Source of the DNA: a virus
Direction: 5' to 3' (one strand)
DNA length: 64,000 nucleotides
Virus genome (UHGV): UHGV-0033546
In this document: positions 37,824 through 58,150 of the stretch, in pieces
Position numbering within the stretch: position 1 is the first letter of the stretch
Layout of the letters: each line of letters starts with the position of its first letter
Translations under genes and position numbers: made by a program
The notes under the pieces: model-generated
Databases searched by the model: none
Told to the model about the DNA's origin: nothing
Seen by the model: the letters and a program-made list of their open reading frames with translations, nothing else

Positions 37824-38848
37824 ATTTTGGCATATTTAGATAGCCGCATTTTAGCCATTAACCCCTGGGCAATATTATTTTTCATATATTCCATAATTTG
37901 TTCAGGGGTTGCACCTTCCTTTCTAATCATATCATTAACATCTTTTGATTTCCAGGGAGATTTATCCCAGAACATAACCCTTTCTCCTGCATTGACTAAT
38001 TTAGTCATTCGCTTAATAGTGTCAGGATGACGAGGTTCATTATCTAAGACCCACACACGTCTATCTTTAAATGGAACAATTTCTAGGTCTAATTGACCAC
38101 CCGTAATAGCTATACCATTTTCAATAAAAAGTGAATCTATAGGTCCTTCTAGAACATATACATCACCATCTTTAACTCGTTCGACTCCATATATTTTTGT
38201 TGCCTCAGGATAAGCTTTAATGGTGATATATTTTTGAGGAGCATCTTTCTTTAATGCACGTCCTTGAAAAGACTCAGCTTTTCCATTAGCATTATAAATT
38301 GGAATAACAAGACGAGGCTCAGAAATTTCCTTTTTGTATGTTCCTGGTGCTATACTATTAACCAATTTTGGCCATTCAGTTGTAAACCAAAGATATTTCC
38401 ATTTATCCTTTGGAATACAACGAGCTTTTACGTATTTTATAATTGGATGGTCTTCCGCCAGTTTATCTAATCTAACACATGACGGAAGAGATTTAATTAT
38501 TTTCTTCTCAGGCTGTTTAGGAAGTTCTTTAGGTTTTTCTACTGGACGACTTTTACCTTTTTCTTTTCTTATTTCAAAGATATACTCGCGATATAAATCA
38601 GGTTCAAACTCCTTTAAATATATTCCGATTGGTGCATGATAGTTACAGTTATAACAATGAATATTTCCTTCATTATTATCGCCATAATACCATCCACGGG
38701 CTTTATTTTGATCGGTTTTTGAATCTCCACAAACAGGGCATCTAAACCGCAATTTAAAAGTTGAACTATTATTTACTTGTGTGAATTTAGGTAAATGAGC
38801 CAATGCACGGTATGCAAACTCATTATCAATCCAAGGTATTGATGACAT
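37820..38848 (-). CDS. 61: DNA primase gp61
   Basis: 342 aa; zinc ribbon CPVCGD...HCYNC plus TOPRIM; T4 gp61 length. Confidence 0.95.
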   Translation of the reverse strand: MSSIPWIDNEFAYRALAHLPKFTQVNNSSTFKLRFRCPVCGDSKTDQNKARGWYYGDNNEGNIHCYNCNYHAPIGIYLKEFEPDLYREYIFEIRKEKGKSRPVEKPKELPKQPEKKIIKSLPSCVRLDKLAEDHPIIKYVKARCIPKDKWKYLWFTTEWPKLVNSIAPGTYKKEISEPRLVIPIYNANGKAESFQGRALKKDAPQKYITIKAYPEATKIYGVERVKDGDVYVLEGPIDSLFIENGIAITGGQLDLEIVPFKDRRVWVLDNEPRHPDTIKRMTKLVNAGERVMFWDKSPWKSKDVNDMIRKEGATPEQIMEYMKNNIAQGLMAKMRLSKYAKI

Positions 38849-38850
38849 TT

Positions 38851-39015
38851 TTACTCTTCTTTTTCTTTAGATTCCTCTTTTTTCTTTTTAGGAATCTGTT
38901 CAGGACCTTTATTTACTACAGCACCTGACGTTGTTCCAGTAGAGATATTTTCAGGATTACCACCTGAATCTCCAGCTACCATATCTTCTTTAATAAATTC
39001 TTTATATGTTTTCAT
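38851..39015 (-). CDS. Hypothetical protein 61.1-like (54 aa)
   Basis: lysine/glutamate-rich C-terminus; below ORF-track cutoff. Confidence 0.4.
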   Translation of the reverse strand: MKTYKEFIKEDMVAGDSGGNPENISTGTTSGAVVNKGPEQIPKKKKEESKEKEE

Positions 39016-39016
39016 A

Positions 39017-39373
39017 TTAACCTCTATTCATAAAAGCATTAAAAATTTGGTCATCAATCGATGGAATAGCAACTTTTTCTGCATCATTTAGCAAATCATT
39101 AATTTCATCAGATAGCATAACACATGTACCTTTATTTCCTGTAATTGTTACTGCACAATTACGAACGTTTTCTTTATCAAATTTTAGGTTAATATTTTCG
39201 TAGTGAAAATCCTTTAATGCCGAATATATTTTTAAAATGAAATTGTCTTTTACTACAATAAACCCAACCTCGCTATTAAAACGTGGTTCATGGAAGCTGT
39301 AATAAATCTTTTCATCTATGAAATCGTATGAAATTTTTTCCAATTTTAAATATGAAAATTCAGAACTATACAT
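39017..39373 (-). CDS. Hypothetical protein 61.2-like (118 aa)
   Basis: ORF. Confidence 0.5.
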   Translation of the reverse strand: MYSSEFSYLKLEKISYDFIDEKIYYSFHEPRFNSEVGFIVVKDNFILKIYSALKDFHYENINLKFDKENVRNCAVTITGNKGTCVMLSDEINDLLNDAEKVAIPSIDDQIFNAFMNRG

Positions 39374-39385
39374 ACTAACCTCTAA

Positions 39386-39679
39386 TTATTCACCTACCAC
39401 TTCAGCGATGATATTTTTATTATTAAAGTTTTTATCGCAATACAGAACATAATTATATTGCATTACACCACCAGATTTAAGCTGTTTTTGCACTTCAGCT
39501 TTCATTTCAGGACGATCACGCTCAACGATATTCATAATATCTGCTTCAATTTGAGTTTCAACTTCAGTCTGATCCGCAGTCATAGACCATTCGCACAAAT
39601 CTTTATCATAACCTGCCATGGCAGGCTGAGCAGCACAAGAAGATAAAGCAAAAATTGCAGCAAAGATAAATTTTTTCAT
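39386..39679 (-). CDS. sp: Spackle-like periplasmic protein
   Basis: 97 aa with N-terminal signal peptide MKKFIFAAIFALSSCAAQPAMAG; size and position match T4 sp (61.3). Confidence 0.65.
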   Translation of the reverse strand: MKKFIFAAIFALSSCAAQPAMAGYDKDLCEWSMTADQTEVETQIEADIMNIVERDRPEMKAEVQKQLKSGGVMQYNYVLYCDKNFNNKNIIAEVVGE

Positions 39680-39737
39680 GATAATCTCCTCAGTAGTTTA
39701 TGTTTATAGTATCTCAATTTCCTGCAAAAGTAAACAG

Positions 39738-39995
39738 TTATTTTAAAACTTCTGCATAATCACATGTTACAAACTGTTTCTCTAACTTGACGATTTTACG
39801 AAAGTATCTTTTGCATTGGCGAATCTGTCGCTTCGTAGGGCGCACAGCAAACTTAATAAATTCCGCTCGACCAAATGGAGGGCTTTCTTCTGCCGGAATA
39901 TCTAATACTAATTCCCACGTATCTGCAATAAGTGCTTTGAATTGTGTATTTTTCCTGACGTTATACGGAGTAGGTTTAAATAAAACAATATGCAT
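39738..39995 (-). CDS. Hypothetical protein 61.4-like (85 aa)
   Basis: start moved to MHIVLF with GAGGA RBS so it no longer overlaps dmd. Confidence 0.45.
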   Translation of the reverse strand: MHIVLFKPTPYNVRKNTQFKALIADTWELVLDIPAEESPPFGRAEFIKFAVRPTKRQIRQCKRYFRKIVKLEKQFVTCDYAEVLK

Positions 39996-39996
39996 A

Positions 39997-40179
39997 TTAT
40001 CCTCGGCAATCCACTTCACATACTTTCTTGCCATCAATGAAAGCTTTAACTAATGCTTTATTAACTTCAGCATATTGAGTAGTAGCCCATTGAACGTCAT
40101 CTTTCATCATTGTGATTTCTTTAGTAAACATGCTTTCGTTCTTAAACCACCCCATAAAAACTACCTTTACCAATTCCAT
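39997..40179 (-). CDS. dmd: Dmd antitoxin (discriminator of mRNA degradation)
   Basis: 60-aa ORF adjacent to gene 41, first gene after the early promoter; size and position as T4 dmd (61.5). Confidence 0.7.
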   Translation of the reverse strand: MELVKVVFMGWFKNESMFTKEITMMKDDVQWATTQYAEVNKALVKAFIDGKKVCEVDCRG

Positions 40180-40208
40180 AACAATCTCCTCATTTAACCA
40201 ACAAGACT

Positions 40209-40238
40209 ACTATACCATAATCTTGTCAGCTTGTAAAC
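40209..40238 (-). promoter_or_regulatory. T4-type early promoter for the dmd unit
   Basis: minus strand GTTTAC-N18-TATAGT just after the gene 41 stop. Confidence 0.55.
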
Positions 40239-41665
40239 TAAAATTTTAATTCATTTGCCAAAGCATCTAACTGAGCTCGAGCGGATTCGTTTCTTTGATA
40301 GCGGTTCTGTTCAGCTTGAATCTGCTGTGAACCTGCTACTTCGTTCACTTCGGTTGGAGTAGAATCTTGTTCAATTTCTACCCATTTCTGATTTCCTTTT
40401 TGAACACCCATCAAAAACTTATTCCATTTATTCTTATCACCATATCGTGATTTGATTTGCTTAATGAGTTGTTGTTCAGCAGCTGCTAACTCTTCAGTTT
40501 CAATGACCGCAAGCATAAAATCGGCTGTCGCTGGAAGACCAGCAGATTCTGCTATATCACTCATGTTAACATCAGAAGAGTCCCAAGCTTGTTTACCAAC
40601 CTGCGCTGCAGTCCAAAGAACAGTTTCAGTTTCAACAGCCAGAGCACGTAATTCCTCTGCAATAGCTTTAACAGTTGTGTAACTATTTTCTGAATAAACT
40701 CGGATGCGGCACGATTTACAAATACCTAGATAGTCGACAATAATGATTGTTGGAACAAAATTCTTCTTGAGCTTCAATTCATTCAAGAGAGACCTGAATG
40801 TGTTAGCATCTGCTCCACCAGTAGGATACTGTTTAACAATTAAACGACCGAGAGTAGATTTCTCACGCCATTTTTCCATTTTTCCTTTATACTCAGCGTA
40901 AGAAATATGCCCATCATCAATGTCATCAAGAGAAACATCAAGCATATTAGCATCAATGCGCTTAGCACAGACTTCTTCTGCCATTTCCATGGAAATGTAA
41001 AGAACATTATGTCCAAGCTGCAAATAATCTGCTGCTAATGAACACAATCCTAATGACTTACCAACGTTAACACCAGCCATTAAAACGTTCAGTGTTCCAG
41101 TCTCAGCTCCGCCTTTAGTAATTTTATTCAGAATTTTGAGTCTAAATGGAACCTTACGAGCTTTATTCATATAAGATAGCCAACGTGCTTCGTAGTCATC
41201 CATCCAATCATGGCCAACGTAGCTATCAAATGAAATTGATAATGCTTGACGCATGATGTCAGGAATAGCACCTACATCTGGCATTTTCTTATTTCGTTTT
41301 TCCGGAGGAAGCTCAGCATTGGTTTGAATTTCAATTATTTTAGACGTAGCATTAAACATCGCCCTTTGCTGAACATATTTTTCTGTTTCTTTTACTAACC
41401 AACTGTGGTCTTCCGGAGAATCAGCTAGTTTTGAAATAAGTGTTTTTACACCAGAATATTCTGTTTCAGTAAATGAACTATTTTCTAATGCAACATTTAA
41501 CGCATTAATAGATGGAACGCTATGGTACTCATTGACATGAGATTTAATTAATTTGAATGTATTTTTAGCTGGACCACTTTCAAAATATTCTGAATCCATA
41601 TATGGCCAAACTTTTGAAAAATAAGCTTGATCAAATATGAGATGAGAAAGAATAATTTCTACCAC
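40238..41665 (-). CDS. 41: Replicative DNA helicase gp41 (DnaB family)
   Basis: 475 aa, T4 gp41 length. Confidence 0.95.
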   Translation of the reverse strand: MVEIILSHLIFDQAYFSKVWPYMDSEYFESGPAKNTFKLIKSHVNEYHSVPSINALNVALENSSFTETEYSGVKTLISKLADSPEDHSWLVKETEKYVQQRAMFNATSKIIEIQTNAELPPEKRNKKMPDVGAIPDIMRQALSISFDSYVGHDWMDDYEARWLSYMNKARKVPFRLKILNKITKGGAETGTLNVLMAGVNVGKSLGLCSLAADYLQLGHNVLYISMEMAEEVCAKRIDANMLDVSLDDIDDGHISYAEYKGKMEKWREKSTLGRLIVKQYPTGGADANTFRSLLNELKLKKNFVPTIIIVDYLGICKSCRIRVYSENSYTTVKAIAEELRALAVETETVLWTAAQVGKQAWDSSDVNMSDIAESAGLPATADFMLAVIETEELAAAEQQLIKQIKSRYGDKNKWNKFLMGVQKGNQKWVEIEQDSTPTEVNEVAGSQQIQAEQNRYQRNESARAQLDALANELKF

Positions 41666-41674
41666 ACTTACTCC

Positions 41675-42037
41675 TTAAAAGAATTTAAATTTTTTCTTTG
41701 ACCTTTTATTAAATGCATCTTGTAGTTGCATTGTAATACATTTTTCTACATGAGGAGCTAACTCAGCTTTTCTTTCTTGGTCAAGAACAGCAAAGTCCAT
41801 TACAACCTTTCCATCAACCCAATCTAATTTTGTCACATACACAATGTGTGTAGAACCATCTTCTAGTTTAATGACAATCTCCTGGATAACATTTTCCATG
41901 GCAGATTTAATTATCTTAAGAGATTCATTAAAAAGACGTTCTTTTCTTTCTTCTTCCCCCTCCGAAGAGGGGGATTCATCGATAATTTCTAGATCTAAAT
42001 CTAAATCATCTTTATTCATTAAATTCTTCCATATCAC
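41675..42037 (-). CDS. 40: gp40-like protein (120 aa)
   Basis: acidic N-terminus; position between uvsX and 41. Confidence 0.6.
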   Translation of the reverse strand: MIWKNLMNKDDLDLDLEIIDESPSSEGEEERKERLFNESLKIIKSAMENVIQEIVIKLEDGSTHIVYVTKLDWVDGKVVMDFAVLDQERKAELAPHVEKCITMQLQDAFNKRSKKKFKFF

Positions 42038-43193
42038 TTAACTGATCTAGGTCAGTTTCTAAATCAGCTGCTGATTTACTTTTACTTTCTGGAGATTTAA
42101 ATTTTTCAACCTTTGAGTTAATCAATTCATCAACTTCAGCTTCAACAATTTCATTACTATCAATAGCACCTAATTGATAAGCACGTTTAATAGCATCTCG
42201 GAATGGCTGATGCTTAAATAAAGGACCCCAGAATGTAGTGCAGTTGGTATCTTTTGCACGCCAAGATTTTTCTTCGCGAATCATCTCGCCGGTTTCTTCG
42301 TCAAGAAATTCACGAGCATACCAGCCATTTTTTGGTTTTACCACAAATCCTAATTCAAGAGCCATATCTAACAATCCAGAATAAGGATCGATACCACCGT
42401 CAAATTTAACATCAATAAAGAATTTACTTTTTTCTTTAACAGTACGAGATTTTTCTACATTTAGAACAAATTGATACCCCTGAAGATCAGAACCATCTTT
42501 AATCTGGCGCTTACCGATAATGAATACAGTATCAGCCGAATACATTACGCCTGTACCACCTGTCATCACGGTTTTACTAAACATTTCAATTGTTTCAATT
42601 GTATGGTTAACCGCAACACATGGAATATTTTTAATGCTAAAATAAGGAGTAACAATACGGAATAATGACTTCAGCGATTTAGCACGAGTCATATCTGCCA
42701 CAGATTTTTCATTCAAGGCATCTTCCGTTTCTTTCTTAGAAGCCATATTACCGATTGAGTCGATGAATACAATAACCTTTTCACCACGCTCAATAGCTTC
42801 AAGCTGATTCACCATATCAATTTTCAGCTGTTCAACTGACTGGATTGGCGTATGAATTACTCGTTCCGGGTCAACACCCATGGATCGCAAATAAGCTGGA
42901 GTAATACCAAATTCGCTATCATAAAATAGACAAACCGCGTCAGGATATTTGTTCAAATACGCCGCAACCATAGTCAAAGACATATTTGATTTAAAGTGTT
43001 TAGAAGGACCTGCAAAAATGGTTAAACCAGACTGCATACCACCATCAATCGCACCAGAAATAGCGATATTAAGCATTGGGATTTTTGTGCGAATTACATC
43101 CTTTTCATTAAAGAATTTAGATGTAGTCAGTTCAGCAGTCATTTTAGAAGTGGAAGCTTTAATCAAACGGGATTTTAAATCTGCAATAGACAT
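42012..43193 (-). CDS. uvsX: UvsX recombinase (RecA/Rad51 family)
   Basis: 393 aa; matches T4 UvsX from memory. Confidence 0.95.
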   Translation of the reverse strand: MSIADLKSRLIKASTSKMTAELTTSKFFNEKDVIRTKIPMLNIAISGAIDGGMQSGLTIFAGPSKHFKSNMSLTMVAAYLNKYPDAVCLFYDSEFGITPAYLRSMGVDPERVIHTPIQSVEQLKIDMVNQLEAIERGEKVIVFIDSIGNMASKKETEDALNEKSVADMTRAKSLKSLFRIVTPYFSIKNIPCVAVNHTIETIEMFSKTVMTGGTGVMYSADTVFIIGKRQIKDGSDLQGYQFVLNVEKSRTVKEKSKFFIDVKFDGGIDPYSGLLDMALELGFVVKPKNGWYAREFLDEETGEMIREEKSWRAKDTNCTTFWGPLFKHQPFRDAIKRAYQLGAIDSNEIVEAEVDELINSKVEKFKSPESKSKSAADLETDLDQLSDMEEFNE

Positions 43194-43270
43194 TCATTTT
43201 TTCCATAGGCATCATTATATTTTCCTCACTGGTTAAAGATAGAGTAATTATAACACAATAAATTTAGGCA

Positions 43271-44119
43271 TTAATCAACTGCTATTGGATGAATAGCATT
43301 AAACTTATGAAATGCTTCTGATTTTTCTTTACGCGAAACACACATACGAAGAACCTTTAATGGCTCGTCTTCTTCACCCAACGATTTTCGTTTTTCAATA
43401 TTAGAAGTTTTCCAACGAGCTTGCTCTGGAAACTCTCTATTGATTTGCTCAAGAGCTCTATTATGTTTTGAATTACTACGAATTGAACTACACCCACCAG
43501 GAGCTTGTGCTTTTCCAGATACAACTAGATATTTGAACAAGGCCAAATGCGGATAACCTTGATTAATTAAATTGAGAAATGCATACATATCTTCGCATAA
43601 ATCAATTTTTCCATACCCAATTTGTTCTGTGGTAAGTTTTCCTAAATCATACCATGTATTTGTGAATCCATATGAATTTTCACGATAATTACCCCAAGAT
43701 GAAGTAATTTTAAAAATTGGTAGACGAGCATGGCCATGATAATACCCGCAATCCATGGCATCTTCAACGTATTGAATCAATTCATAGAACTGTTCACGAG
43801 TTAATTGATTAATTTTATCTACGCAGCGACGATCATCTTTCTTTCGCATTGAACTCATACGAATAGTAGTATCATCATCAATCATCCAAATTCGTTGACC
43901 TGCATACATATCAGTAATTGCTTTACGAGTACCAGCAATTCCGTTAACATCATCAGGAATAGTTATAATTTTAGCTCTAGACCCGTAAGCGTCATAATAA
44001 GCTTTTTCTTCATGTTTACGCACTACAATATGGGGTTCATAATCAGTCGGAAACATATCAAGGGCAGAAACTGCCCCGACACGCTGATAACTTGGAATTA
44101 CGAATTGAATCATTTCCAC
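43271..44119 (-). CDS. Candidate DNA glucosyltransferase (GT-A-like), possibly the T2/T6-type beta-glucosyl-HMC alpha-glucosyltransferase
   Basis: 282 aa (T4 beta-gt is 351 aa); DxD-like WMIDDDTT; sits between uvsX and 42. Confidence 0.45.
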   Translation of the reverse strand: MEMIQFVIPSYQRVGAVSALDMFPTDYEPHIVVRKHEEKAYYDAYGSRAKIITIPDDVNGIAGTRKAITDMYAGQRIWMIDDDTTIRMSSMRKKDDRRCVDKINQLTREQFYELIQYVEDAMDCGYYHGHARLPIFKITSSWGNYRENSYGFTNTWYDLGKLTTEQIGYGKIDLCEDMYAFLNLINQGYPHLALFKYLVVSGKAQAPGGCSSIRSNSKHNRALEQINREFPEQARWKTSNIEKRKSLGEEDEPLKVLRMCVSRKEKSEAFHKFNAIHPIAVD

Positions 44120-44850
44120 TCACCATTATAATCTTTTTTCGCAATATGAGTTTCGCCAGTATTCCACCAATGGTCAACCAAATAAAACTGATTTTCGTAC
44201 ACATGAAGACTTCCGACATTCCATATAATAGAACCTGCTTTATACTGTCGTGATGGGTCGCCTGCATTCAAATCAGATACTAATTTATCTAGTACGTATT
44301 TTTGCCACGCATAATCATTACGATAGCCTGCCCAGCAGTCATTGCTTCTCATATTAACAACTGCATTGACTTTCTTATCACGAATCAGGTACTGTACTGT
44401 ATTAGTACACATGAAATCTGACATGCCGTCTTTGTTGTAGTCAAACTGCATAGATGGACGAGTATAAATCATGATACCACGCCGAGAATCAGGATTTTGA
44501 CCAAGTTCAGCTAAACACATATCATACTGGGCATAGTTATTTTCTGACCAGATAGCCCAACCATAATTCGAGTTAATTTCGCCTTTAGAAGATGCTACCT
44601 GCTGCCAAATCTTTGGTGTTTCACCTGGAATATCTTTAACAAACAAGCTCTTAGATTTATACCATTCAAGTTCACGCTGAATGTATTCATCATTAAGAGC
44701 GCCAAAAATAAACGGTTCATCTGCTACAAATGATGCGCCAATAATTTCAATAGTTTTAACACCAGTTTTATCAACTACGAAATCTTTTTCCTTTAATGCA
44801 AGCCCCAAATGAAGACGGATTTCTTCAACTGTCATAGAGTCACTAATCAT
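44110..44850 (-). CDS. 42: dCMP hydroxymethylase gp42
   Basis: 246 aa, thymidylate-synthase-like; T4 gp42 length. Confidence 0.9.
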   Translation of the reverse strand: MISDSMTVEEIRLHLGLALKEKDFVVDKTGVKTIEIIGASFVADEPFIFGALNDEYIQRELEWYKSKSLFVKDIPGETPKIWQQVASSKGEINSNYGWAIWSENNYAQYDMCLAELGQNPDSRRGIMIYTRPSMQFDYNKDGMSDFMCTNTVQYLIRDKKVNAVVNMRSNDCWAGYRNDYAWQKYVLDKLVSDLNAGDPSRQYKAGSIIWNVGSLHVYENQFYLVDHWWNTGETHIAKKDYNGEWK

Positions 44851-45003
44851 TTAAACCTCAATTGATACATTCATATTTAACTTGTAACAGTAATAAACTC
44901 CAACCTAAAATAATAGTTGGAATCATAAGAGGAACCGTTACACTATAGTATATACTTATTATAATCATCAAGATTAAAAGCAATGCTGCTATAATTTTGC
45001 TTT

Positions 45004-45255
45004 TCATTCCTTCTCTCTGATGATAATTACTTGATTTGGTTGTGCAGACTTTTTAGTTTCACCTGCAATTGACCAAATAAATGTAATAAACCAACCAATA
45101 ATTGACCAATTAAACAGTAAAGATGTGAAAAAGATTCCTACTGTCGATTTTGACCCACGCATCAAGGCGATGAACCACGGAAGCATGTATATAATAATAG
45201 CCAACACGCCTGAAACTAAAACCATAAAAATTGAACCTGCTACTAAAGTTTCCAT
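45004..45255 (-). CDS. imm: Superinfection immunity protein Imm
   Basis: 83 aa, two transmembrane segments; T4 Imm length and position. Confidence 0.8.
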   Translation of the reverse strand: METLVAGSIFMVLVSGVLAIIIYMLPWFIALMRGSKSTVGIFFTSLLFNWSIIGWFITFIWSIAGETKKSAQPNQVIIIREKE

Positions 45256-45262
45256 GTTTTCC

Positions 45263-45643
45263 TCACTTAGTCAAATTTTTTACACATGAATTATAAGAAT
45301 TCACTACATACTCCATCGGAGCATTTTTACCAGTACGCCATTGGTAATTATTAGCCCAATTAGCCCAAAGTTCGGCACAGTAGTTTTCAATTTTTTCTTC
45401 GCGTGTAATTACATCTGAATTACGATATGCTTGAGCAGATTCATCTGGACGAATAGCCTCGTCAAAATTCGCCTGCATTTGTTCTACCGTCTGTTTTGGA
45501 GCTTCTTTATAACACTTGACGTTAGGATTATAAAACTTACTTGAACAGTTTACAATTTTTCCTACATCAGATTGATTTACTACCGGTCCTTGAGCTACAC
45601 AACCAGTAAGACCCAATGCAATAACTAAAATAGTGATTTTCAT
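45263..45643 (-). CDS. Predicted lipoprotein (126 aa)
   Basis: ORF trimmed to MKITILVIALGLTGC (lipobox LTGC) with GGAG RBS, downstream of early promoter. Confidence 0.6.
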   Translation of the reverse strand: MKITILVIALGLTGCVAQGPVVNQSDVGKIVNCSSKFYNPNVKCYKEAPKQTVEQMQANFDEAIRPDESAQAYRNSDVITREEKIENYCAELWANWANNYQWRTGKNAPMEYVVNSYNSCVKNLTK

Positions 45644-45677
45644 TTCATTCTCCAAATCTGTATTGGTTGATAGTTGT

Positions 45678-45707
45678 ATAGTACCATGGAAGAACAGGGA
45701 TGTAAAT
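45678..45707 (-). promoter_or_regulatory. T4-type early promoter (variant -35 ATTTAC)
   Basis: minus strand ATTTAC-N18-TACTAT, same 60-bp family. Confidence 0.5.
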
Positions 45708-45788
45708 AGTTTTGTGAAAAAATTTTTAATGAATTTACAGGACCTAGAATCATCTATTTTTCCTAAGTATAGATTTATATTACTTGTA

Positions 45789-45811
45789 TGAAAAAGGGAC
45801 CCGGAGGTCCC
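45789..45811 (-). terminator. Terminator-like hairpin after gene 43
   Basis: minus strand GGGACC-TCCG-GGTCCC followed by TTTTTC. Confidence 0.6.
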
Positions 45812-45824
45812 TAGATTTATTCTA

Positions 45825-48521
45825 TCAGCCAAACAGGAAGTCTAACGAAGCTTTTTCCTCATAGTCCATACCTGCAGATTCACACATACCCGCAAGCGGT
45901 TTAACAAACGATTTTTGGAACAAAGTTGAGTAGTCAATCCAAGACAGTACGTCAGAACGAATTTCTTTTGGAAGTTCCGTACCCGATGGCCAAGCAATGC
46001 ACTTATCACCAAATGGATTTCCTTCACGTAATGGAAGAACCATTACCTTATTTCCATCCAAAATTGGAGCTACACCTAAACCGTTAACAGCTCGACGATA
46101 AGTTAGTACACCACGAATATGGAACGGACATTTAAATCCTGGCCAACCTTTATCATCATATTTCGCTATATCGTTCGCAGTTTTTACTTCAGCAATAACT
46201 TTATAGTCAAGTTGACGATATTCTTTCTCGAAGTTCTTGTAATATTCTTGGACAGACTCTTCACCTTCCTGAAGAATACGACGAATACTTTCTTCGAGAG
46301 CTTCTTGGACCGCTTTAGGCGTTGAGCTCTGCTGAGTTTCCATACCCATGATTTTTAGATGCGGTTCGGCAAATCGCTTATCTTCCATATCATAAACGTT
46401 CAGAGCATAACGTTTTTTCGCTTTCCAAAATCCACCGACACCCTTTGAACCAAGCGGAGGGCAAGAAATAGCTTCACGGTCCATATGCATCAGATGCTCG
46501 CGGTTATTCATATAATCACATAACTCGCGATATGCAACATCAATCATAGGTTCCATCTTTTTCTTACCGAACTGATTCATGAATTCAACTAAATCATTTT
46601 GTTCTTTAAAGCGATCAAGACCTACTTTTTCAATAACTTTATCTACACAAACATATACCGAATCAGTATCACCTGCTGCGATGAAATCTTCACCATTAGT
46701 TCCACATACTTTATTCAGATATTCATTAATTTTGCGAGCAATCCACTGAATACCGACTTGACCGAAAATTGTGATAGCAGTAGCATTTCGCAAATCATAG
46801 TAACGGAAATGAATATTACCAAGAGCACCATAAAGACTGTTAATAAGAATTTTACGGTTCAGCTGATTTGTGTTAGCAAGTGTAGCAGCTTTTTCACATT
46901 CTTCAATCAGACTATTAAGAACAGATTCGGTGTAATTCGATAATTCGTTTAAGAAATCATCACTGAACTTAACATATCGTTCAACTTCTGGTTTAGTTGA
47001 GCAAGACCCTGCACCTTTCATAATAATCTTTTTAATAGCTTCGGCATTCATTTCTTCCGCGAACATTTTCTTTTTCCAATCTTTACGCTGGAAAAATACT
47101 TTAGCGATTTCCTTTGGAATGATACCTTCTTGGTGCTTATCATACATCCATCCATTCGGAGAGCAAGAATATTCATCACTTGGCTTAGGAGCTGTTCCTG
47201 CGATATATTCATGAATTGGATGAACTTTAAACTGCCCACGAATAGTCTCAGGACTAATGTTAACCTGACGAATAATGCTAGGATACAGAGACGTCAAGTC
47301 AAAACTCATAATGTATCGACGAGCAATCGGTTTAGGTTCAAACACAAATGCACCTGGAAAACTCTGTTTAACGTGCGAACCTTGTTGAGGAATAACCTTA
47401 TGTTCACCTTTCAATGAGTTAAAAATAATAGCATCCCAAGTTTTAATAGGACTCATTACACCAGAAAAAGGCATTTTAGCATAATAAGACATACTTAAAA
47501 CTAGATCGATAAACCCACGAATTTTATCAATTGCTTGAACTGATTCTACGTCAATGATGTTATAACTAATGTATCGTTGATGATTAGTCTCACGAAGTTT
47601 ATTAATAGGACCATCGTACGGCAATTTACCTTTTTTGGTTTCATGTTGAGCAACTGATTCCAAAGAGAATGACGGCAAATTAGTAAAAGCGAATTTCTTG
47701 TACAAATCTAAATAATCAAGAATAGATACGCCATCAATAGAATAAATTTCTTTGCTACCATACATATTTTGAATTAGTTTAGATTTTACTCGACCGATTG
47801 GAGAGAAGCGTTTCATACTGCGTTCGCCCAGAACCATTTTAACACGATTCATGATATACGGAACGTCAAATCCCTCAATATTCCAACCGGTAAAAATAGC
47901 AGGTCGTTTCTGTTCCCAGAGATTAATATATTCCATGAGCATATCACGCTCATTATCGAATGGCATATAAATTACTCGGTCAAGAATTTCTTGAGGAACT
48001 TCATCACCACCTTCACAGTCAAGCTTAGCAGCTAACTTTGCATCCCATTTTGATACTGAACCGTACATTGAATTCAAAAGGTCGAAAACATAAAAACGAT
48101 CATCAATTGAATCATAATGGGTGATAGCATCAATTTCATATTCTGCTTTCATTGGGTCAGGAAATTTATCACCAGTAACCTCAATGTCGCAGTTAGCTAC
48201 ACGAACAAATTTTCGGTCATAAACAATTTCTGAACCATATGTATCACTGATATAAGCGAGTTTAAAATCGTTCATACCAAGAGCTTCGAGACCGATGTCT
48301 TCCATTCGTTTCATCCAATCTCGGGCATCTTTCATTGATGGAAATTTTTGAGGAGCACAGTTTTTACCGTAAATGTCTTTGTACTTTGACTCTTCCTTAC
48401 AGTGCCTAAACATAGTCGGAAGATATTCTACTTCGCGAGTACGTTCCTTTCCGTTTTCATCAATATAACGCTCAACAATGTTATTTCCGACTGTTTCAAT
48501 AGAGATATAAAATTCTTTCAT
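45825..48521 (-). CDS. 43: DNA polymerase gp43 (family B)
   Basis: 898 aa, same length as T4 gp43; exonuclease and polymerase motifs. Confidence 0.97.
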   Translation of the reverse strand: MKEFYISIETVGNNIVERYIDENGKERTREVEYLPTMFRHCKEESKYKDIYGKNCAPQKFPSMKDARDWMKRMEDIGLEALGMNDFKLAYISDTYGSEIVYDRKFVRVANCDIEVTGDKFPDPMKAEYEIDAITHYDSIDDRFYVFDLLNSMYGSVSKWDAKLAAKLDCEGGDEVPQEILDRVIYMPFDNERDMLMEYINLWEQKRPAIFTGWNIEGFDVPYIMNRVKMVLGERSMKRFSPIGRVKSKLIQNMYGSKEIYSIDGVSILDYLDLYKKFAFTNLPSFSLESVAQHETKKGKLPYDGPINKLRETNHQRYISYNIIDVESVQAIDKIRGFIDLVLSMSYYAKMPFSGVMSPIKTWDAIIFNSLKGEHKVIPQQGSHVKQSFPGAFVFEPKPIARRYIMSFDLTSLYPSIIRQVNISPETIRGQFKVHPIHEYIAGTAPKPSDEYSCSPNGWMYDKHQEGIIPKEIAKVFFQRKDWKKKMFAEEMNAEAIKKIIMKGAGSCSTKPEVERYVKFSDDFLNELSNYTESVLNSLIEECEKAATLANTNQLNRKILINSLYGALGNIHFRYYDLRNATAITIFGQVGIQWIARKINEYLNKVCGTNGEDFIAAGDTDSVYVCVDKVIEKVGLDRFKEQNDLVEFMNQFGKKKMEPMIDVAYRELCDYMNNREHLMHMDREAISCPPLGSKGVGGFWKAKKRYALNVYDMEDKRFAEPHLKIMGMETQQSSTPKAVQEALEESIRRILQEGEESVQEYYKNFEKEYRQLDYKVIAEVKTANDIAKYDDKGWPGFKCPFHIRGVLTYRRAVNGLGVAPILDGNKVMVLPLREGNPFGDKCIAWPSGTELPKEIRSDVLSWIDYSTLFQKSFVKPLAGMCESAGMDYEEKASLDFLFG

Positions 48522-48560
48522 AGATATTCCTTAGTTTATAGCCCGAGTTATTAGGCTCTT
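48522..48560 (-). promoter_or_regulatory. Gene 43 translational operator
   Basis: mRNA reads GAGCC-UAAUAACUC-GGGCU ... AAGGA ... AUG; the AAUAACUC loop is the one I recall for the T4 gp43 operator. Confidence 0.7.
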
Positions 48561-48599
48561 GATATATTATACTCCAAATAAGGGGCCGAAGCCCCTTGC

Positions 48600-48968
48600 T
48601 TAATTACCAATCGTATATTTAGGAACGAGTTTCCATTCATGTTTTTGTTTAAAAGAAATAACTCGGAAGTTATTAGTTAGATCTTTCATAAAAGTTCTTT
48701 GACCTGGAGCGATTTCAATCAGTCCCCAATCTTCTAACAGCCACGCAATCGAATCACGGCGAACTTCATCTTCTTCTGTCATTTCAACCTGACGGCCATC
48801 CATACGAAGCATTTCTTTAAAATGAACGATATAGTATAGTCCTTTTTTCTGAAGAATATGACAGGACTGATACAAAACTTTATCTTTATTATTAGCAATT
48901 CCCATACGAGTCAAAGTTTCTTTTACTTTCAGAAAATCTTCAGGTTTTTTAAGAGTAATTTCAATCAT
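48600..48968 (-). CDS. regA: Translational repressor RegA
   Basis: 122 aa; T4 RegA length and position. Confidence 0.9.
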   Translation of the reverse strand: MIEITLKKPEDFLKVKETLTRMGIANNKDKVLYQSCHILQKKGLYYIVHFKEMLRMDGRQVEMTEEDEVRRDSIAWLLEDWGLIEIAPGQRTFMKDLTNNFRVISFKQKHEWKLVPKYTIGN

Positions 48969-48969
48969 T

Positions 48970-49533
48970 TTACCATTCCAATGCTAGTTTTTTGAGTTGT
49001 TTCTGTTCTTTTACATTCTTAGTCACTTCTTTTAAAAAATCATCCGTGACTAAACCTTTTAGTTCTTTTAATACTAAAGGAAGTTTTCCATTTTTAGTAA
49101 GAATTGATTTATAGTTAATTGCATCATTTGTATTAACTTGATACCGTTTAGCAAGTAACTTAATAATCAATACTTCGGTAGAATCTTCAACCAGTTTTGC
49201 CCATTTACCATATCTTTTACCACGAGGAACTGCAGCCATCAGATAATTAAAATGAGCTTCATCACTTAATCCGGAACCGATTAAATTCATTGCATATACA
49301 GCTGGCATGCACTCCGGAAATTGTGATAATGCATTTTCAACCATGAATTTTGAATAATCTTTTTGAGCAATAGAGCATTTAGTTTTATTATTAATAGCTC
49401 CAATTATTTCAAAAAATTCATTTTCAGATTTTTCCTTAAAAGAATCAGCAGCAGATTGGACAGCTGTCCAATCTTTTGAATACCAAGCAACTTGATGCTT
49501 GTTTAATTGAATATCATCTTCAAATAAGCTCAT
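48970..49533 (-). CDS. 62: Clamp loader small subunit gp62
   Basis: ORF-track 194 aa trimmed to MSLFEDD (187 aa as T4 gp62). Confidence 0.85.
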
Positions 49534-49534
49534 A

Positions 49535-50494
49535 TCACTTCCACTGCATTTCACATGCTAATTGAATGAAAAGATATGCTAAATGTAATTCCGTATTAGC
49601 CGCAATTCCATGATACTGATTATTTTCACCAACAATTTCATACATACGAATAATACTTTGCGGAGTTACACGTGAATAAATTTCTTCGGCAAGTTTACCT
49701 ACGAACCACGAATAATCAGCTGCATATTTTGGTGCTAAAGCTCTGAGTTGTTTAACATCTTTATTTTTGAGAGACTCAAGAACATCATCAATAGCACCAC
49801 GATCGTTAGTAACCAATGATAAAATACCAGCATCCAAAACACCTTTAGATGAATAACTATCGAGCTCACCAATAGTTTTACGAAAATCAGGAAAATTCTT
49901 TTTAACCAAAGCTGCTACAACTTTCATATCAGCTATAGCAATTCCTTCATGCTTGCAGATTTCAGTCAATCGACGAATCATCTGCTTCATCATTTCAATT
50001 TTATCTTCATCAGTCGGTTGACCGAATGTAATAACTCGGCAGCGTGACTGAAGCGGTTTAATAATACCATCAATATTGTTAGCAGTAATAATAATACTAC
50101 AGTTTGAACTATAAGCTTCCATAAAGGAACGAAGATGTCGCTGAGACTCTGCTAACCCTGAACGGTCAAATTCATCAATAACGATTACTTTTTGACGACC
50201 ATCAAATGAAGCTGCACTAGCAAAATTAGTCAAAGGACCACGAACGAAATCAATTTTACAATCTGACCCATTCACAAACATCATATCAGCATTTACATCA
50301 TGACACAATGCTTTTGCTACAGTTGTTTTACCTGTTCCTGGAGAAGGAGAATGAAGAATAATATGTGGAATCTTACCTTTACTTGTAATAGATTTAAAGG
50401 TTTCTTTATCAAAGGCGGGAAGAATACATTCATCGATAGTAGATGGACGATATTTCTGTTCAAGAATGTGTTCTTTTTCATTTACAGTAATCAT
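49535..50494 (-). CDS. 44: Clamp loader large subunit gp44 (AAA+)
   Basis: ORF-track 324 aa trimmed to MITVNEKE (319 aa); Walker A GTGKT. Confidence 0.95.
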
Positions 50495-56947: not shown

Positions 56948-58150
56948 TTATTTTGTAATAATGTCAAACTGTTCTTTAAAGCAGAAGCTTGAATCTTGAT
57001 GCTGATACAAAAATTCATAAGCTTTTTCTCGCTCACGGTCATAAAGAGCTCGGTCAGATGACAGTTCTTTAATACGCTCGAATGTCGATTCCATGTCATT
57101 TTCGTCAAACCAAACGATACCGCTATCATGAGAAATTAACGGAGTATTATCAACACGGAATTTTAAATTTTCGCCAGTAGATTTCCAAAATACCGGAATT
57201 GTTCCACACGCTCCAAGCTCGAGATGAGTATATTCTAAAGAACGTTGTAGATATTTTTTGTCCAACTTACTCAACTGATAACCAAAACCGGATTTACTCA
57301 TGCGTTCAAGCATTTCGCTATTTACATAACGATCAAGAATTTGCGTTGGCAAATTAGGAGCAATTTTAATTTGGTCTACTTGATGAAGACGATAATACTC
57401 GTATGGAATTCCTTTTTCTTTAATAGGAATGAACGCTGGAGAACGTTCCAGACCTTCCATAATAGTACTTAGCCCAGCAGGTTTAAGATGTTTTTCGTGG
57501 AAATCAAACATCTGATAAAAACCTTTCCATGTAGTCGTACGACCAATCCAACGATTGACATTCATGTTAATTTTAGAAACATCTTTCCAGTAGGTTGATC
57601 GAACCTTCGCAATATCCATAGGAGGCTGAAAGTTGTATACAGTCGGTGCTTCTTCAATATCATCAAACAGAGAAACCGTTTCTGGATACCATTCTTTCAT
57701 CAAAACTTTATTAAAATCGCCATTATCAGAATGACTAAAAATAACATCAGCTCGACGAACAGTTTCTTCTAATCCCAAATTTCGACGCAAAGAAAGAGAA
57801 GAATGGTCATGTTGATAAACTACAACACGAACCGAAGGTTTAATGTTATCAATAATTTTTTTATAGTTATTAATAGTGTCTTCTTCGACTGAAGTAGCAG
57901 GAACTGAATTGATAATTAGAATATCACAATCATTTACCAGCTTAAGCGTTTTATCATATTCTTTTGCCAATAAAACCGGAATTGAAAATGATTTATAATC
58001 ATGTGCGCAATTACGAGTAAATGATTTATCTTTAGCATAAACCAAAGTTACTTCATGACCATTTTTAATAAACCAATCACGTTGCTCGAGAGAAAATTTA
58101 GTTACACCACAACCTTCAAGACCCCGAGCCATAAAAATACATACTTTCAT
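56948..58150 (-). CDS. agt: DNA alpha-glucosyltransferase
   Basis: 400 aa; near-identical to T4 alpha-gt as I recall it. Confidence 0.95.
   Translation of the reverse strand: MKVCIFMARGLEGCGVTKFSLEQRDWFIKNGHEVTLVYAKDKSFTRNCAHDYKSFSIPVLLAKEYDKTLKLVNDCDILIINSVPATSVEEDTINNYKKIIDNIKPSVRVVVYQHDHSSLSLRRNLGLEETVRRADVIFSHSDNGDFNKVLMKEWYPETVSLFDDIEEAPTVYNFQPPMDIAKVRSTYWKDVSKINMNVNRWIGRTTTWKGFYQMFDFHEKHLKPAGLSTIMEGLERSPAFIPIKEKGIPYEYYRLHQVDQIKIAPNLPTQILDRYVNSEMLERMSKSGFGYQLSKLDKKYLQRSLEYTHLELGACGTIPVFWKSTGENLKFRVDNTPLISHDSGIVWFDENDMESTFERIKELSSDRALYDREREKAYEFLYQHQDSSFCFKEQFDIITK

Follow-up and report, generated by a model that had tools for sequence, protein, structure and literature searches.

A probable orthologue of the T2/T6 beta-glucosyl-HMC-alpha-glucosyltransferase in the gene 42-uvsX slot of a Tequatrovirus genome

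The T-even bacteriophages differ in the sugars that they attach to the hydroxymethylcytosine (HMC) of their DNA. T2 and T6 are without beta-gt, and their ba-gt enzyme adds a beta-linked glucose to alpha-glucosyl-HMC; gentiobiosyl-HMC amounts to ~5% in T2 and ~72% in T6, with ~25% of HMC bare (10.64898/2026.02.25.707755). When ba-gt (also g-gt) is deleted from T6, gentiobiosyl-HMC is lost and only alpha-glucosyl-HMC is left, and the phage becomes more sensitive to Brig1 while its DNA can then be acted on by the BapA glucosidase (PMC11078745; 10.64898/2026.02.25.707755). Tequatrovirus phages of the Durham collection that have alpha-GT and TAGT contain 5-hmdC, alpha-glucosyl-mdC, and alpha-gentiobiosyl-mdC by HPLC/MS (PMC13390438). 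Among 753 GT-bearing phages in a published survey, the common state is a TAGT accompanied by either alpha-GT or beta-GT, the alpha plus beta pair of T4 being found in only 6 and a solitary TAGT, a protein whose function is described as not fully defined, in 288 (PMC13216743).

The window analyzed here, a stretch of 64,000 nucleotides from virus genome UHGV-0033546, carries a gene of this kind in the slot between uvsX (42012-43193, minus strand, from the open reading frame list) and gene 42. An earlier note on this DNA had described the occupant of the slot as a 282-residue glucosyltransferase with a DxD-like motif, distinct from the 351-residue beta-gt of T4 and accompanied by an intact alpha-gt at 56948-58150, and on each of these points its description holds. 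The minus-strand open reading frame at 43271..44119 is indeed 282 residues long when read from a GTG. The likely start, however, is the ATG at 44113 rather than the GTG at 44119, giving a coding sequence at 43271..44113 of 280 codons plus stop; an 843-nucleotide coding sequence from the corresponding ATG is also how ba-gt is annotated in T2 records. At the junction the minus strand reads GTG GAA ATG A, so that the ba-gt ATG (44113-44111) overlaps the TGA stop of gene 42 (44112-44110) as ATGA. This overlap suggests co-translation, and translation of ba-gt is probably coupled to that of gene 42. A scan of 42900-45100 for promoters and terminators returned sites no more numerous than in shuffled sequence. 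Among the features flagged by the terminator scan, whose number was not above the shuffled background, is a 7-bp GC-rich hairpin, GGGGCAG-TTT-CTGCCCT, at 44061-44077 on the minus strand, which lies within ba-gt codons 13-18 and is unchanged in T2 and T6.

It is highly probable that the 43271-44113 open reading frame encodes an orthologue of the T2/T6 beta-glucosyl-HMC-alpha-glucosyltransferase, predicted from its sequence to act as a UDP-glucose-dependent DNA glycosyltransferase of the GT-A (GT2-like) type. In the window, the basis for this assignment is orthology, synteny, fold, intact motifs, and intact partner genes; the chemistry and phenotypes are those of the T2/T6 literature. The protein is identical to that of T2 at 275 of 280 positions (98%), with no gaps, and differs from that of T6 MH550421 at seven, including the position of a stop codon in MH550421. 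It shares with the T2/T6 proteins (g-gt, ggt) its length, its position between 42 and uvsX, the ATGA overlap with gene 42, and an alpha-gt partner. A match to phrog_842, annotated as beta-glucosyl-HMC-alpha-glucosyltransferase, was obtained at 3.9e-89. The Pfam TAGT family, PF20691, scores 38.3 bits, which passes its gathering cut-off of 27.5, with residues 5-209 of the 282-residue GTG-start product (3-207 from the ATG) aligned to profile positions 2-205 of 205; a search of NCBIfam returned no family for either ba-gt or alpha-gt. The closest database cluster was found at an E value of 1.4e-188, which excludes a chance match, and the protein shares 99% identity with the representative of a cluster of 485 members. 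For the gathering of homologues, a word-indexed search found 11 proteins and a second, alignment-based search found 51, sufficient for a confident structural model.

Across the phage collection the gene is far from rare. In 475 phage records the DNA of ba-gt is matched over its full length, with a nucleotide identity of 90-99% and always adjoining gene 42; most are Tequatrovirus of Escherichia, Shigella, and Yersinia, and the gene is annotated in them as beta-glucosyl-HMC-alpha-glucosyltransferase or simply "glucosyl transferase." The earlier note's view needs two refinements. The ba-gt state is common among Tequatrovirus and not unusual (475 records; PMC13216743), and having the gene does not by itself set the level of gentiobiosylation (~5% in T2, ~72% in T6). 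The presence of ba-gt in the 42-uvsX slot is an already known feature and the ordinary Tequatrovirus arrangement, to which T4 is the exception. Over 38000-50000 (12 kb), the best matches among deposited phages (A6-6, ECp13, and vB_SsoM_113) reach only ~97% nucleotide identity, and the window thus comes from a Tequatrovirus with no identical record in the collection searched. Its gp42 has a minority-allele patch, SNDCWAGYRND in place of the SNDVVFGFRND of T4 and T6, as well as VYENQF in place of the VYSRHF of T6; with a 32-residue query across the first patch, 33 matches were exact and 57 near among 766 phage records, most of which have the T4-like version.

In T4 the corresponding slot is occupied by an unrelated enzyme. 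The T4 beta-gt (351 residues, from a coding sequence of 1056 nucleotides) resembles ba-gt in its location, its UDP-glucose donor, and the beta linkage that it makes on phage HMC DNA, but its acceptor is bare HMC, and beside it in the T4 slot segA has also been inserted. The shared genomic position is all that speaks for the idea that the window gene is a diverged beta-gt, and the comparison of the two proteins makes that idea vanishingly improbable: BLASTP detects no similarity (best E value 3.3); T4 beta-gt belongs to PF09198, which it matches at 9.4e-98, whereas a Pfam scan of the window protein gives PF20691 and no match to PF09198; and the predicted GT-A fold of the window protein contrasts with the GT-B fold of T4 beta-gt, which is listed under family GT63 or GT72 (PMC13216743). 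Sequence, Pfam family, and fold together rule out even a distant relationship. Nor does a tblastn search with T4 beta-gt across the 64-kb window find a homologue elsewhere in it (best E value 2.4). By alignment, then, ba-gt is orthologous to the T2/T6 enzyme and unrelated to T4 beta-gt; homology to the latter and the lack of a glycosyltransferase fold, the two findings that the earlier note had named as contrary to its reading, were both absent.

A trace of ba-gt can be seen in T4 itself. Directly before the segA start codon, on the minus strand at L002:4238-4262, T4 has a remnant of 25 nucleotides, TTCATCGAATAGCAGTTGATTAATG, which matches the 3' end of ba-gt, stop codon included, at 24 of 25 positions (43269-43293 in the window). 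This remnant suggests that ba-gt was formerly present in the T4 lineage and was replaced there by beta-gt, with segA nearby.

Structure prediction for the window protein gives a confident glycosyltransferase fold of the GT-A type, and the model contains one Rossmann-like GT-A domain, together with a DxD motif, as expected of a GT2-like enzyme; a GT-A fold has also been reported for the TAGT of T6 (PMC13216743). The motif is the triplet D79-D80-D81 (43871..43879, minus strand), encoded as (GAT)3, which corresponds to the metal- and UDP-sugar-binding DxD of the GT-A fold. The N-terminal IPSYQR motif, whose R11 codon lies at 44081..44083 on the minus strand, corresponds to the "IPxYNR" nucleotide-binding loop of GT2 enzymes. 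In an alignment of 41 sequences the invariant residues are I6, R11, R63, D79, D80, D81, D175, G186, G206, G207, and R212, and all 11 are retained in the window protein. When PDB sequences were searched with a profile, the GT2 enzymes AvpGT and K4CP were recovered; their IPTYNR aligns with the IPSYxR loop, R11 falling on the YNR of both, and their DDD/DxD motifs align with the DDD. A single-sequence search of the same sequences with the window protein returned chance matches only, and these PDB sequence searches yielded no solved structure for the TAGT family. The profile reached only the N-terminal halves of AvpGT and K4CP, so that the catalytic roles given to single residues are putative. From what is general to GT2-like GT-A enzymes, the reaction would be an inverting, metal-dependent transfer from UDP-alpha-glucose, which agrees with the beta-1,6 linkage found in gentiobiose. 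The probable catalytic base is D175 of the E174-D175 motif (43589..43591, minus strand), which in a weak second-domain profile alignment, not significant alone, falls on the "EED" of AvpGT.

The family to which the window protein is assigned takes its name from a different context. The TET-associated glycosyltransferases (TAGT) of PF20691 have a GT-A fold that is sister to GT2, and they share with ba-gt the IPSYxR loop, the DDD, and the ED motif. The partner of the TAGT proteins, however, is a TET/JBP dioxygenase and their acceptor is the base itself, whereas ba-gt is partnered by a dCMP hydroxymethylase and alpha-gt and acts on a sugar already on the DNA (PMC13216743). A departure of the window enzyme from the specificity of T2/T6, whether through use of a different sugar donor or through direct glycosylation of bare HMC as must occur in phages with a solitary TAGT, might be considered in light of the 288 of 753 phages having TAGT alone, its function not fully defined (PMC13216743), and of remoter homologues, 47-66% identical, in phages of Klebsiella, Enterobacter, and Serratia. 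With 98% identity to the T2 protein, the same slot, and the same alpha-gt partner, such a change is very unlikely for the window gene.

The partner genes are themselves complete. Gene 42 (44110..44850, minus strand) is an intact open reading frame for a dCMP hydroxymethylase of 246 residues, so annotated in the T2, T4, and T6 records and with matches in the thymidylate synthase family. The alpha-gt gene (56948..58150, minus strand) is a full-length open reading frame encoding a DNA alpha-glucosyltransferase of 400 residues that matches the whole of Pfam AGT, PF11440, at 2.3e-235 and shares 91% identity with the T4 protein over 400 residues. In T2, glucosylation is reported to be switched off and on through a run of nine A residues in agt, which acts as a contingency locus (bioRxiv 10.1101/2025.10.21.683753); the window gene has an in-frame A7 tract at the same site (gene nucleotides 289-295, window 57856-57862). 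The co-occurrence of ba-gt with intact alpha-gt and gene 42, in a window with no beta-gt, together with the T2 identity and the shared slot, supports the T2/T6-type modification pattern that the earlier note had proposed.

Taken with the T2/T6 literature, these genes outline a pathway in which gene 42 would supply hydroxymethyl-dCMP for incorporation into DNA and alpha-gt would place an alpha-linked glucose on about three-quarters of the HMC, creating the alpha-glucosyl-HMC that serves as acceptor for ba-gt. The latter would then add a second glucose, linked beta-1,6 to the first, to give gentiobiosyl-HMC. In this transfer the DDD motif is predicted to hold the divalent metal and UDP-glucose while D175 acts as the base, the conversion of an alpha-linked donor to a beta-linked product being a prediction of the GT2-like fold. 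As no beta-gt is present in the window, about one-quarter of the HMC would remain unglucosylated.

How much gentiobiosyl-HMC such a pathway produces is a separate issue from the presence of the gene, for the 98% identical protein of T2 gives only ~5%. The alleles of ba-gt differ in ways that may bear on this. From the T2 protein, that of the window differs by a few conservative substitutions (at K33, K92, I101, and P251) and by the lack of R11H, a change present in all three T2 records compared (L001:3007-3849, L006:4283-5125, and L007:4286-5128). In a tblastn search with a 32-residue query, the H11 allele was matched exactly in only 8 of 684 matching records, all of them T2 or the equivalent SV76. 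The comparison with T6 involves two sequences under three accession numbers, each with a different and apparently damaging lesion, neither of which occurs in the window gene. In MH550421 (L003:4138-4980) codon 10 is TAG (Q10*), and a protein of 261 residues is annotated from M20; in AP018814, which is the same as RefSeq NC_054907 (L005:4135-4977), one GAT of the (GAT)3 is lost in frame, reducing DDD to DD. These lesions suggest stock-specific decay or slippage at a trinucleotide repeat. The T2 R11H and T6 Q10* changes are located just 5' of the hairpin described above.

Two views of enzyme activity can be set against these alleles. If the window enzyme were an orthologue that works only weakly, as in T2, its DNA would be essentially alpha-monoglucosylated with ~25% bare HMC, and ba-gt would have little effect on sensitivity to restriction. 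The low yield of the nearly identical T2 protein is in keeping with this, as are the lesions in both T6 sequences, from which it follows that ba-gt is dispensable in culture. For the window phage it is nevertheless unlikely, since Q10, R11, the DDD, and the full set of family-invariant residues are intact, the exact R11H match is confined to the 8 T2/SV76 records, the protein all but coincides with the representative of the large cluster described above, and gentiobiosyl-mdC is present in Tequatrovirus phages of the Durham collection that also carry alpha-gt and ba-gt (PMC13390438). An active enzyme is the preferred reading: because the window allele is free of the T2-private R11H, a substantial level of gentiobiosylation, like that of T6 and unlike the 5% of T2, is expected from the sequence. 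More tentatively, R11H itself, which alters a family-invariant residue of the UDP-binding loop, could explain the difference between ~5% in T2 and ~72% in T6, an observation now sixty years old. This is an appreciable possibility, though we would put it at somewhat less than even; the window has the intact Q10/R11/DDD allele common to hundreds of natural Tequatrovirus isolates. A limited search of the literature found no statement of such an explanation.

Which host defenses can see phage DNA depends on the sugars that its HMC carries. Published examples of defenses that read HMC sugars include McrBC, type IV enzymes of the GmrSD/BrxU/TgvAB type, the Brig1 and Brig3/BapA glycosylase systems, and Cas9. 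The earlier note had associated the modification pattern with sensitivity to restriction, and for ba-gt this association is documented in the T6 deletion mutants (PMC11078745; 10.64898/2026.02.25.707755). Assignment of ba-gt in a genome such as this one is a matter of routine annotation and no discovery, but it is of use when a host range or a phage for therapy is to be chosen. With alpha-gt and ba-gt and without beta-gt, the window phage is predicted to carry a mixture of alpha-glucosyl-HMC, gentiobiosyl-HMC, and ~25% bare HMC, and to be sensitive to 5hmC glycosylases of the Brig3 type while being partially protected from Brig1 and BapA. If R11H does account for the low diglucosylation of T2, then heavy diglucosylation, as in T6, would be expected of the window phage and of most natural T-even phages.
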